Source: Longimicrobiales bacterium
GTDB taxonomy: Bacteria > Gemmatimonadota > Gemmatimonadetes > Longimicrobiales > Gaopeijiaceae
Reading direction: 5' to 3'
Length of the DNA stretch: 64,000 bases
Assembly (NCBI GenBank): GCA_965249725.1
Contig: CBDFMQ010000002.1
Span: 800,001-864,000 of the forward strand
Shown here: one piece after another, positions 23,836 through 30,201 of the stretch
Layout: each line of letters starts with the position of its first letter
Position numbering within the stretch: the stretch's first letter is position 1
The notes under the pieces: generated by a model
The model's database searches: none
The model's input: the letters and a program-made list of their open reading frames with translations, nothing else
What the model was told of the DNA's origin: nothing
Made by a program: the position numbers and the translations under genes

Positions 23836-24058
23836 GTGGCCGCTGCGAGCGGAGGCTGGGATCCCGTGCGATTCGGGCTCTTCGCGATCTACGCGCCCTA
23901 TCTCCTGGTCCACGGCGCTTTGCTCCTGCGTCGAGTCTATGGCCTCAGTCTCCTCGGGGCAGCCCTCCGGATGCTTGTGCTGGCGCTCTGCTATCTCCTC
24001 GGCATCGGCTATTTCCTCGCGGGAATCGCTCGAGCTGCAGCATCGATGAGCGGTCTAA
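23836..24058 (+). pseudogene. 3' remnant of a membrane-protein cassette gene
   Basis: Hydrophobic frame (..YLLVHGALLLRRVYGLSLLGAALRMLVLALCYLL..) running into attC1; no intact 5' end. Confidence 0.5.
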
Positions 24059-24152
24059 CAAGCGATTGCTGCAGTCGCGGTGAGCATTCGACTCGCGCGC
24101 TTCGCTTGCGGTCGGCATCTTGGTCGCGCAGCAGAATCGCAATCCGTTAGGC
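24053..24152 (+). repeat. attC site 1
   Basis: GTCTAAC-AAGCGATTGCTGC...GCAGCAGAATCGC-AATCC-GTTAGGC. Confidence 0.92.
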
Positions 24153-24240
24153 GTCATCGACCTAGGCGGCGGTGGCGGAGCCAGCCATTCGAAACGCGGG
24201 AAGAACTTTACGACCGCATGTTCTTTCTTTGGGGCGGAGC

Positions 24241-24753
24241 ATGGGTGTCAAGAACTTCCTAGTCGAAGGCGTTTCTTGTACCGGCAAAACCTCGGTCTGC
24301 GACGAGCTGCAACGGCGCGGCTACCACTGCATCCATGGCGACAGGGACTTGGCCTATTGGGGTGATCCCAAGACCGGTGAGCCTTTAGAAAGCTCAGCCT
24401 ACGAGCATTGGATCTGGGATGTCGATAAGGTCAGAGCTTTGGTGGCAGACCAAAGTCATGCGGCATCGTTCTTTTGCGGCGGTTCGAGGAATCTCGACCG
24501 ATTCATCGATCTGCTCGATGGAGTTTTTGTTCTCGAGGTCGATCTGGACACGCTGAACCGGCGTCTTGCCCTCCGACCAGAGGACGAGTGGGGCGGCCCA
24601 GCAAGCGACGGGGAATCCAATGCGCGATTGCAACACGCGACAAGAGAAGGCACTCCAGAGAACGCGATCACAATCGACGCCACGGCACCCATCGCACGGG
24701 TGGTCGACGCGATTCTCGGGAAATGCCAACTAGAGACTGCGAATGACGCCTAA
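24241..24753 (+). CDS. Cassette gene: AAA/P-loop nucleoside-kinase-like protein
   Basis: GVSCTGKTS P-loop, FFCGGSRN; GGAG RBS; stop TAA lies in the attC2 R'' box. Confidence 0.8.
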   Translation: MGVKNFLVEGVSCTGKTSVCDELQRRGYHCIHGDRDLAYWGDPKTGEPLESSAYEHWIWDVDKVRALVADQSHAASFFCGGSRNLDRFIDLLDGVFVLEVDLDTLNRRLALRPEDEWGGPASDGESNARLQHATREGTPENAITIDATAPIARVVDAILGKCQLETANDA

Positions 24754-24847
24754 CAAGCGATTGCTGCAGTCGCGGTAAGCATCTAGCTCGCGCGCTTCGC
24801 TTGCGGTCGGCATGTTGGTCGCGCAGCAGAATCGCAATCCGTTAGGA
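24748..24847 (+). repeat. attC site 2
   Basis: GCCTAAC...GTTAGGA with the same internal arms. Confidence 0.92.
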
Positions 24848-24855
24848 AGCGCCTT

Positions 24856-25257
24856 CTACCGTTCTTGTATCCTCTCCCAGAAGCCGCGGGGAGAGAGAAT
24901 ATCGACGGGTAGGCTGTGGGCGGCGTCAAGAAAGTCGCGGTCCCCCGTAACGAGTACGTCCGCCGACCCCTCGAGCGCCTCGGCCAAGACTAGGACGTCG
25001 TCGGCGTCCCGGAGTTCGACGTCTGGTTCGGATGCGTGGGAGACGACCGCCGCCTCCCGCCGTAGGAACGATTCCGTCTCCTCGATCGTCGCCGCCGGCA
25101 CTCGCATCTTCTCCGAAAGCACTCGGGTCAACTCAGCCAATACAGTTTCCCCAAGGACGAGTTGGTGTTCGGCCACGACCACCGTGACTACGTCCGCGCA
25201 GATACCCCGAGTCGTAAAGGCACTGACGAGCACATTGGTGTCGAGAAAGACTCTCAA
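24856..25257 (-). CDS. Cassette gene: PIN-domain toxin
   Basis: RVFLDTNVLVSA, RDADD..VLAEA, LVTGDRDFL. Confidence 0.9.
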   Translation of the reverse strand: MRVFLDTNVLVSAFTTRGICADVVTVVVAEHQLVLGETVLAELTRVLSEKMRVPAATIEETESFLRREAAVVSHASEPDVELRDADDVLVLAEALEGSADVLVTGDRDFLDAAHSLPVDILSPRGFWERIQER

Positions 25258-25475
25258 GAAACGTCTCTGAAGACGTCCTCGTCCGTGAGATACCCGGCGG
25301 CCTCGGCAAAGGGCATGATCCGTCTCCGCAGATCCTCGAACTGTGCCACGGCGAGCTGACGTCGAAGCGCGTCACGTACGATCTCACTCCGAGAACGTCC
25401 GCTGCGCTTGGCCGCGCGCTCGAGCTGTTTCTCCAGATCGGGATCCAACCGAATTGTAAGTGCCGAGGTTTTCAT
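25254..25475 (-). CDS. Cassette gene: ribbon-helix-helix (CopG-like) antitoxin
   Basis: LTIRLD...L...AKRSGRSRSEIVRDALRR; 4-bp overlap with the PIN gene. Confidence 0.88.
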   Translation of the reverse strand: MKTSALTIRLDPDLEKQLERAAKRSGRSRSEIVRDALRRQLAVAQFEDLRRRIMPFAEAAGYLTDEDVFRDVS

Positions 25476-25502
25476 GTATTACAATGTATGACGTCCGGCG
25501 CT

Positions 25503-28693: not shown

Positions 28694-28791
28694 CTAACAA
28701 GCGATTGCTGCAGTCGCGGTAAGCGTTTGGCTCGCGCGCTTCGCTTGCGGTCCACATCTTGATCGCGCAGCAGAATCGCAATCCGTTAGCT
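28692..28791 (+). repeat. attC site 5
   Basis: AGCTAAC...GTTAGCT. Confidence 0.92.
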
Positions 28792-28853
28792 AGCGCCTAC
28801 GAGGTAGGGTCGACGGACCTTTCTGTGTACACACCGCGTATGTACATTCCGTG

Positions 28854-29150
28854 ATGTCCCACATCGAATTCGAGTGGGACCTGCAGAAGAACCGAGCCAA
28901 TCGAAAAAAACACGGCGTCTCGTTCGATGAGGCGTCGACGGCCTTCTATGACGAAGAGGGCCTGTTGCTGGACGATCCGGATCATTCTGAGAGCGAGGAT
29001 CACTTCATCATCCTAGGCGTCAGTTCCGCGCTCCGTCTTCTTGTGGTCGTCCATTGTTACCGTGGGGAGGACGCCACGATTCGAATCATCTCGGCCCGAA
29101 AAGCAGTGCCGGCCGAGGCCGCCTTCTACGAGAGTCACCAAAGGCCATGA
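28854..29150 (+). CDS. brnT: Cassette gene: BrnT-family toxin
   Basis: FEWD..KN..N.KKHGVSFDEA, IRIISARKA. Confidence 0.92.
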   Translation: MSHIEFEWDLQKNRANRKKHGVSFDEASTAFYDEEGLLLDDPDHSESEDHFIILGVSSALRLLVVVHCYRGEDATIRIISARKAVPAEAAFYESHQRP

Positions 29151-29377
29151 GAGCAGAGTACGATTTTTCGAAAGCCCGCAAGAATCCGTATGCGAAGCGA
29201 CTCAAGAAGCGCGTGACCATCCGCCTAGACACGCCGACCGTGGACTACTTCAAGCAACTCGCGGAAGAGACTGGGATCCCCTACCAAACCCTCATCAATC
29301 TCTACCTCAGGGATTGTGCGGCATCGAAACGGGAGTTGAACCTGGAGTGGCGGGGGGCGACCAGCGGCGCTGGCTAA
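29147..29377 (+). CDS. brnA: Cassette gene: BrnA-family antitoxin
   Basis: MRAEYDFS, VTIRLD, YFK, IPYQTLINLYL; ATGA overlap; stop in attC6 R''. Confidence 0.9.
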   Translation: MRAEYDFSKARKNPYAKRLKKRVTIRLDTPTVDYFKQLAEETGIPYQTLINLYLRDCAASKRELNLEWRGATSGAG

Positions 29378-29472
29378 CCAGCGATTGCTACTGTCGCGGT
29401 AAGCATCAAGCTCGCGCGCTACGCTCGCGGTCCACATCTTGGACGCGCAGCAGAATCGCCGATCCGTTATGT
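29372..29472 (+). repeat. attC site 6 (internally identical to attC4)
   Basis: GGCTAAC...GTTATGT. Confidence 0.92.
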
Positions 29473-29883
29473 GGCCTCGCTGTGGTCCTGCAGCAGAGCC
29501 ATGAAGGCCCGAGGCGTGACCACGTCTACGCCTCGCCACCCTGAGGCCTCAAGTAGGTGCCTGTCGCCAGACACCACGAGGGCCCCCACTTGTTGGGCAC
29601 AGATCATGAACTTGTCGTCGTCCGGATCGGTCGTGATGGATTCCGGAGCAGTCGCATCGGGCACTAGCGTTCCGTGCCCAACTACGGTCGCGAGAAGTTC
29701 GTCGTAGTTGAGAGTCGGGTGGCCTGCGCCCAGCCGATCGCAGGTCCGCAGGTACTCATCGAAAATCGTTGGCGAAAGAAACAGCTCGAAGCGCCCTTCT
29801 GCCCACGCTTCGAGCACACTCCGGGGCACGCCTCCGAAGAAGATCCCAGAAACCACCACATTGGTGTCTAGGACAGCCTTCAC
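29467..29883 (-). CDS. Cassette gene: PIN-domain toxin
   Basis: AVLDTNVVVSG, DPDDDKF..CA, VVSGDRHLL. Confidence 0.9.
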   Translation of the reverse strand: MKAVLDTNVVVSGIFFGGVPRSVLEAWAEGRFELFLSPTIFDEYLRTCDRLGAGHPTLNYDELLATVVGHGTLVPDATAPESITTDPDDDKFMICAQQVGALVVSGDRHLLEASGWRGVDVVTPRAFMALLQDHSEAT

Positions 29884-30143
29884 TCCTTCCTCCGGACCTC
29901 CCGAATAGCCCGATCGATATCGTCAGGAGTGAGTTCAGCCTTCTCAGCCGACTCATGAGCCTGGTCCAACAACGCCTTGAAGTCCGCCATTCTCGGTGGC
30001 TTGAGAGCTTTGAGCACGACGACGTCGCCCTCGCCCACAACGACGAACTGTGCCCCAGGCTCGAGTCCAAGTCGGTTTCGGATCTCTTCAGGAATGACGA
30101 CCTGTCCTCTGGAGGAGAGTTTTGTCGTGGCCGCACGTACCAT
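29880..30143 (-). CDS. Cassette gene: AbrB/MazE-family antitoxin
   Basis: TTKLSSRGQVVIPEEIR..LGL.PG; overlaps PIN gene. Confidence 0.9.
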   Translation of the reverse strand: MVRAATTKLSSRGQVVIPEEIRNRLGLEPGAQFVVVGEGDVVVLKALKPPRMADFKALLDQAHESAEKAELTPDDIDRAIREVRRKE

Positions 30144-30201
30144 AATGCCTCCGGTTGGATCTTATTGGTAAGATAATGCGGAGACCAAGTACGGTCGACC
30201 C

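Follow-up and report, generated by a model that had tools for sequence, protein, structure and literature searches.

A cassette array probably detached from a Gemmatimonadota chromosomal integron, and an IS481-like element lineage that inserts upstream of attC

How does a row of gene cassettes come to lie on a chromosome with no integrase beside it, and what brought it to an end? These questions are raised by a 64,000-nt stretch of a Longimicrobiales genome (the window; positions are window coordinates unless prefixed, G000 being the host genome and C3 its contig), in which six repeats of 100-101 bp are followed by a truncated insertion sequence (IS). The original prediction read the repeats as attC sites of a chromosomal array with a homogeneous attC family. 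All six are present where it placed them, with pairwise identities of 84-97% (15 pairs), the unit lengths it gave (695, 755, 2357, 832 and 681 bp) are exact, and both the attC/cassette architecture and the homogeneous chromosomal array are borne out. Very probably, the array is the distal part of a Gemmatimonadota chromosomal integron array, detached by an inversion and ended by a member of an attC-targeting IS481-like lineage. The array is a cluster of attC sites lacking an integron-integrase (CALIN) by rearrangement only, an ordinary integron fragment of a known kind. The IS matters more: the attC-seeking IS481-like lineage is the newer result, on a known theme.

Are the repeats attC sites? 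Each reads as R'' (RYYYAAC) and R' (GTTRRRY) boxes with L boxes inside them, the spacers being 5 and 8-9 nt and the length 100-101 bp; the definition applied places the L boxes 5 nt and 5-9 nt inside the R boxes in a site of 55-141 bp overall. Each has one bulged base in the left arm, as predicted, which is a G on the top strand. In the folded bottom strands the R and L boxes are paired, and a bulged C plus a second unpaired A provide the extrahelical bases expected on the R''-L'' arm of an attC site; the bulged base is a C on the bottom strand in 21/21 folded sites, and the arm pairing is backed by compensatory changes across attC families. The architecture is carried by the ends of the units. 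When the R'' heptamer of the downstream site is reverse-complemented, it agrees with the R' heptamer of the upstream site at 7/7 positions in four complete units and at 6/7 in one, and matching ends in each of the five are the pattern expected of a circle integrated at GTT. Whole-site folding energy is weak and weighs against the assignment, with z scores relative to shuffles of -1.63, -1.48, +0.16, -2.10, -2.66 and -2.15. A generic attC scan that used structure alone found 22 hits in the genome, where two shuffles had 9 and 5, and no second family, while an Rfam scan returned no match and is uninformative for attC identity.

Where, then, is the integrase? The original prediction saw none nearby, and this stands for the window, which holds no tyrosine recombinase (the nearest of the genome's 14 starts 25 kb beyond the window end), but not for the genome, where an intact IntI lies 200 kb away. 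Among seven TIGR02249 matches, one is above the cut-off (C3:1028977-1029906, minus strand, 335 bits vs 265). Its gene (C3:1028960-1029937) lies just downstream of tRNA-Pro and is co-oriented with its cassettes, a layout already described (PMC4889954) and also seen with this attC family at loci L098, L048 and L101 (48 loci scanned, many too short to tell). The best PDB match is VchIntI4, in a full-length alignment that covers the integron-specific segment and the catalytic residues; judged from this alignment, IntI is intact, with its integron-specific additional domain and catalytic residues present. Behind it are four attC sites of the window family, the three full-match ones being 86-92% identical to window sites. 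Downstream of intI, a conserved block common to four loci runs up to a GTT and is a candidate attI. No cassette promoter was located next to intI, and a sigma-70 promoter scan of 22900-31200 gave no match, a scan that is uninformative for this host. A short repeat of the tRNA-Pro 3' end (L022:15305-15325), 227 bp past the tRNA and before intI, is a possible old attachment scar; as no partner for it turned up near the window, the data do not show a genomic island with defined bounds.

How did the window sites become separated from this integrase? The gene rnr (RNase R) offers an answer. Its 5' fragment abuts the first cassette remnant of the window. The 3' part is found on the opposite strand at a distance of 195 kb, where it is joined to the left end of a truncated IS3-family copy with which the intI array ends. 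The two halves are reciprocal, give or take one base, and both flanks are collinear with the whole rnr loci of two congeners. A 195-kb inversion, spanning 823.8-1019.3 kb, has one breakpoint in rnr and the other at the truncated IS3-family copy, which has an IS256 beside it. When this inversion is undone in silico, the six window sites fall directly behind the four IntI-side sites in the same direction, giving ten sites. Its midpoint is at 921.6 kb and the GC-skew maximum at 914.8 kb (dnaA is on another contig), making it roughly symmetric about the replication terminus; a search for dif-like patterns found nothing. On C3, 29/32 attC-family sites have their top strand on the leading strand, the low-excision orientation of chromosomal integrons (PMC11023631). 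From established integron biology, the cassettes would have been captured by IntI, and the junctions suggest that the inversion was IS-mediated, by the IS3 copy with the IS256 beside it, probably in several steps. As for rnr itself, the split gene is the genome's only RNase R gene. A whole rnr is found in 4/5 relatives, and the fifth, a complete genome (G007), has no rnr match over the cut-off. Since the only copy here is split and carries an in-frame stop, and a complete relative has no match, the RNase R gene seems dispensable in this bacterial family.

Is the junction real, and could the array have come from elsewhere? Contigs from four runs were compared against the window. One short-read contig of run X15 (22180-24079) crosses the rnr-cassette junction unchanged. 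Contigs of three other studies (runs X1, X18 and X20) match up to 23835, continue with 26-31 differing letters and stop, leaving 23836-23901 uncovered, from which we infer that a repeat, probably the IS3 right end, starts after 23835 in those three contig sets. The same three runs share the four middle cassettes near-identically, without the last two, and join 28684 to the IS left end at 30202. An assembly artefact, with the integron contiguous in the organism, might be suspected in an IS-rich genome in which part of the 748-753 kb region recurs at the start of C3, the more so as X15 may be the source sample. Yet a short-read contig spans the junction without differences, the other three studies depart from the window sequence exactly at 23835, the junction has no repeat and the in-frame stop in the rnr 3' part fits decay, all of which makes an artefact extremely unlikely. 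An independent CALIN, arising at a secondary site or from a second integron without intI and brought to rnr by an unrelated multi-step rearrangement, deserves slightly more credit and is still improbable. The genome does hold 14 clusters of this attC family, the intI-side junction region is scarred by IS256 and the truncated IS3, and the window sites are hardly nearer to the intI-array sites (mean 0.89) than to other clusters (0.86); against this, the rnr halves abut both arrays with a one-base overlap, and the reconstruction gives ten sites in one direction.

Several observations nevertheless count against detachment by inversion. Of the two junctions, the contig support concerns the one between rnr and the cassette remnant, and the origin of X15 applies here too. 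In G001, 160 kb separate rnr from the tRNA-Pro flank, with the relative orientation reversed, and long-range synteny with the congeners neither confirmed nor cleanly refuted the reconstruction. Whatever lay between the last cassette on the IntI side and the first in the window has been lost, so that contiguity rests on the reciprocal breakpoints. In operational terms the window array is a CALIN, with at least two attC sites and no intI within 4-10 kb, and it became one through rearrangement.

What is the element that closes the array? Its transposase is encoded by a single open reading frame (ORF) with LZ_Tnp_IS481/HTH/rve domains, the DDE triad (D150, D210, E252) is invariant in 66 transposase sequences, and the predicted fold is like that of IstA, TnsB and MuA, with a C-terminal beta domain at residues 320-381; among solved structures, none matches the transposase by sequence. 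The element has no partner or targeting gene and no guide-sized non-coding region, with ~120 nt outside the gene, and in its left end each of the three frames meets a stop within 23 nt. The ends read TGAG.../...GGACC. As the terminal TGT rule (bioRxiv 2022.12.17.520857) gives TGT...ACA for the IS481 family, we call the element IS481-like.

Where does it insert? Both G000 copies that keep the right end lie 12 nt before the TAAC of an attC. Across the phylum, 55 loci were examined (4 partial ones dropped, 6 plasmid outgroups, 33 scoreable and 12 unscoreable Gemmatimonadota loci), and TAAC stands at offset 10-13 from the right end in 23/33 scoreable loci, compared with 104/60000 in the background (0.17%) and 0/4 scoreable plasmid outgroups. 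The rule holds for attC sites of different families and for transposases as little as 43% identical. The orientation is constant, with the transposase always antisense to the cassette, and the attC is left intact; the lineage thus inserts in a single orientation with its right end 10-13 nt upstream of the attC TAAC. The target can be read further than TAAC. Distinct right flanks number 42, 14 from G000, G001, G011, G092 and G163 and 28 from G127. In the five-genome set, 14/14 match the 12-letter attC arm at least at 8 letters (10 perfectly) at offsets 9-14, with 0/84 control windows doing so, and metagenome loci, 22 of 24 having enough flank, do the same in 15/22 cases against 0/128 controls. 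The G127 flanks are nearly all outside attC, and still the best arm match is at offset 11 in 21/28, with a mean of 7.0 vs 4.7, so that a degenerate word is retained. Scored independently, 21/43 IS-anchored TAAC sites fold as full attC, compared with 2/562 random TAAC (one of the 43 is an internal false anchor). A target duplication of at least 3 bases, usually 3 bp, is present at 25/38 sites with both flanks. A preference of the IS for sequences resembling its own termini found no support, the best mean identity being 0.37 for the left and 0.34 for the right end vs 0.52 for the attC arm at offset 11.

Not everything fits. TAAC is missing from offset 10-13 at 10/33 scoreable loci, besides the 12 that were unscoreable, and related genomes are not independent, so the counts overstate the number of events. 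Mismatched flanks at attC-like sites were not significantly enriched (6/12 vs 7/26, p=0.27). The class assignment is also strained, with the best NCBIfam match of the transposase (NF033577, IS481) at 212.5 bits vs a cut-off of 224.

How does the element find attC? We favour, with moderate confidence, a transposase that reads the attC left arm directly over recruitment by IntI or selection alone. In double-stranded DNA, the transposase itself would recognise a word like TAAC-N2-GCG-N-TT lying at a set distance from the cut. The main competitor is recruitment by a host protein at attC, namely IntI, as proposed for the xrs-targeting IS1202 elements. The target word is indeed the R''-spacer-L'' arm bound by IntI, 4/5 tested IS-bearing genomes encode IntI (G127 included), and the element carries neither a targeting gene nor a guide-sized non-coding region. 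DDE integration requires a double-stranded target. IntI binds attC as a folded single strand (PMC2727003), which is at odds with that need, and the G127 insertions without a partner arm keep both offset and degenerate word; on balance recruitment is unlikely, though well ahead of the last candidate, in which the IS inserts broadly and selection spares only the copies in the short spacer before attC. A copy there would spare both gene and attC, and the left end has its stops in three frames. Survival alone explains neither the fixed orientation nor the 4-nt-wide offset peak, nor the same word and offset at non-cassette sites of G127, and selection as the sole cause is very improbable.

If the transposase reads the arm directly, what would the element do to integrons? 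It would ride inside cassettes, since the attC is spared and the stop codons in three frames mean that it can travel there, and IS copies in direct repeat would let cassette blocks be deleted without IntI. It is fairly likely that this is a phylum-wide IS481-like lineage specialised on cassettes, travelling in them and deleting or detaching blocks without the integrase. One of four IS types lies within 4 kb of 9/14 attC clusters. In the intI array, two attC sites (L022:10160-10270 and 9550-9660) are identical and also share the 12 nt before them; one of the two is behind an IS481-like copy, which points to duplication and then IS-linked deletion. Other elements have been observed at these sites as well. 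IS110-family elements lie antisense inside attC of the window family at L023:9376-10960 (C3:754376-755960) and C3:2273724-2275225. With the IS481-like element upstream of attC, two unrelated attC-seeking IS types share one genome. In several attC sites of G011 and in one metagenome contig (L180, L183, L240), the same sequence follows the R' GTT, and in G011 it leads into a gene that resembles the IS110 type, which may reflect a third targeting rule, one that acts at the crossover point.

The array consists of five complete cassettes between six attC sites, plus a remnant at each end (Table 1). The earlier list of units was right as far as it went and incomplete at the start, where another 5'-cut cassette precedes the first repeat and is fused to the broken rnr. 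Its small membrane-protein ORF has no Pfam match, its Atlas look-alikes are hypothetical proteins of 72-89 amino acids, and the missing rest of the cassette was not found elsewhere in the genome. Stop codons had been placed in or at the TAAC box, which is true of 3/5 units with forward genes; the gene for the pyrroloquinoline quinone (PQQ)-dependent enzyme has its stop 90 nt before that point, and the first gene continues through attC1. The cargo amounts to one AAA_18 gene, three toxin-antitoxin pairs, one PQQ alcohol dehydrogenase and two uncharacterised proteins.

Table 1. Features of the detached array and of the split rnr gene (window coordinates unless prefixed).
Feature	Position	Strand	Evidence
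rnr (RNase R) 5' fragment, cut by the inversion	23148..23835	+	TIGR02063 positions 2-227; Pfam OB_RNB, CSD2
rnr 3' part with in-frame stop	G000:C3:1017895-1019313	-	TIGR02063 positions 223-710
Inversion junction, rnr 5' part to cassette remnant	23835..23836	.	one X15 contig, no differences
Cassette remnant without 5' end; small membrane-protein ORF running through attC1	23836..24146	+	ORF reading
attC1	24053..24152	+	sequence search, fold
Cassette, 695 bp; AAA_18 (nucleotide-kinase-like) gene 24241-24753, stop inside TAAC	24147..24841	+	Pfam, closure
attC2	24748..24847	+	sequence search, fold
Cassette, 755 bp; reverse-oriented RHH antitoxin and PIN toxin (VapBC-like)	24842..25596	-	Pfam, NCBIfam-type profiles, closure
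attC3	25503..25602	+	sequence search, fold
Cassette, 2357 bp; PQQ-dependent alcohol dehydrogenase with C-terminal cytochrome c domain, gene 25654-27771	25597..27953	+	TIGR03075 above cut-off, Pfam, closure 7/7
attC4	27859..27959	+	sequence search, fold
Cassette, 832 bp; gene 28025-28693 for an uncharacterised protein that points weakly to DUF6090-like clusters	27954..28785	+	
attC5	28692..28791	+	sequence search, fold
Cassette, 681 bp; BrnT toxin and BrnA antitoxin	28786..29466	+	Pfam, closure
attC6	29372..29472	+	sequence search, fold
Last cassette; reverse-oriented AbrB/MazE antitoxin and PIN toxin, own attC lost behind the IS	29467..30201	-	
Left 934 bp of the 1327-bp IS481-like element, transposase antisense to the array	30202..31135	-	identical to full copy C3:8216-9542

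How far does the attC family reach? It had been thought lineage-specific, and this has to be given up: the genome's 34 hits at E<0.001, of which 22 are full length, fall into 14 clusters, and two search sets found matches in 3/5 and 5/5 relatives, related genera included. IntI is above the cut-off in 14/61 genomes, G000 among them, and in 1/2 congeners, where it is 39% identical; array content varies between runs. The suspected Gemmatimonadota host agrees with the closest IntI relatives (74% and 78%), which come from Gemmatimonadota and a Longimicrobiales bacterium. The original prediction knew of no characterised integrons in Gemmatimonadota, but the phylum is already recorded among those that carry them (PMC8618304). 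At G000:C3:2820522-2823136 and in other clusters, large Ser/Thr-kinase-like genes (family read from the N-terminus) lie between or beside attC sites, and a 741-amino-acid one between two full attC sites makes an unusually large cassette. A purN-purH region at the start of the contig (G000:C3:1-5650) duplicates 747000-752900 with different cassettes downstream, and is either an alternative haplotype or an assembly overlap.

Elsewhere in the window, the DNA after the IS (31500-36200) is a phage-satellite-like block of unknown ORFs with a DnaB-like helicase (33414-34328) and an excisionase-like HTH protein (35205-35468). It is followed at 36200-39900 by a fumarate reductase/succinate dehydrogenase-like operon, its gene names read from translations, which is 96% identical to a congener copy while adjacent DNA is about 77% identical, a difference suggesting recent transfer of the operon. 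At 20157-20348 a 12-bp tandem repeat encodes a TKPD/TKPE-rich N-terminal extension of an Era-like GTPase.

What would all this mean? The array would be a readable natural example of a CALIN formed by inversion, the kind of origin that Cury et al. 2016 (PMC4889954) proposed. The IS is a small single-gene DDE element with an oriented, fixed-offset preference for attC and no guide RNA or accessory gene in sight; it opens two testable questions, how a DDE transposase reads its target at a distance and how integron arrays fragment, and it could be used as a compact tool for site-directed insertion into DNA that carries attC. If our interpretation is right, it would represent a protein-guided attC-targeting IS class, distinct from both the introns and the IS1111-attC elements, and would drive the formation of CALINs. 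A literature search found no statement that IS481-type elements target attC, although ISfinder, most subscription papers and supplements were outside it and may record the rule. In PMC8618304, PMC4889954, PMC7923331, PMC3971601, PMC11187229, PMC11023631, PMC2727003 and bioRxiv 2022.12.17.520857 and 2025.06.18.660453, the elements said to target attC are those of the IS1111-attC group and the group IIC introns, and IS1202 elements are said to target xrs.

How do the array and the element compare with known systems? The integron is like the sedentary Treponema-type co-oriented ones, with intI pointing toward the array, homogeneous attC sites and many toxin-antitoxin cassettes. Sedentary chromosomal integrons are defined as fixed in a species and are usually large, whereas the array here is small (ten reconstructed sites) and broken into many clusters. 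The usual bulged G of attC belongs to the bottom strand. Here that base is a C where a G is usual (PMC2727003), and the R'-L' spacer is 8-9 nt. As in sedentary integrons, the bottom strands are on the leading-strand template (PMC4889954, PMC11023631). The array resembles the rearrangement CALINs of Cury et al. 2016 (PMC4889954) in being an attC cluster without nearby intI, with IntI elsewhere and an IS at the break; it differs in that both reciprocal breakpoints are readable, marked by the split rnr, so its origin is reconstructed and not inferred from co-occurrence.

For the element, one-orientation attC seeking is known from the IS1111-attC group (IS110 family; ISKpn4, ISPst6) and the group IIC-attC introns (PMC11187229, PMC7923331), and the IS110-family copies inside attC in this genome resemble the former. 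The insertion point of those elements is inside attC, and they rely on an RNA guide or a ribozyme, whereas the IS481-like element lands outside, 10-13 nt upstream, with a DDE transposase and 3-bp duplications; it shows none of the DEDD transposase, insertion inside attC and absence of duplication that define the IS1111-attC group. The ISAba32 subgroup of the IS1202 family (bioRxiv 2022.12.17.520857) also has a DDE transposase, a distant relation of those of IS481/IS3, and inserts at a constant spacing from the site of a tyrosine recombinase. The target here is an attC arm and not a XerCD site, the duplication is 3 bp and not 5 bp, the ends are not TGT, and an ISNCY/IS1202-type profile gives 29 bits on the transposase. 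With the IS481 family it shares the single ORF, the domains and the best profile match, and it departs from that family in its score below the cut-off, its ends and its strong oriented target preference.

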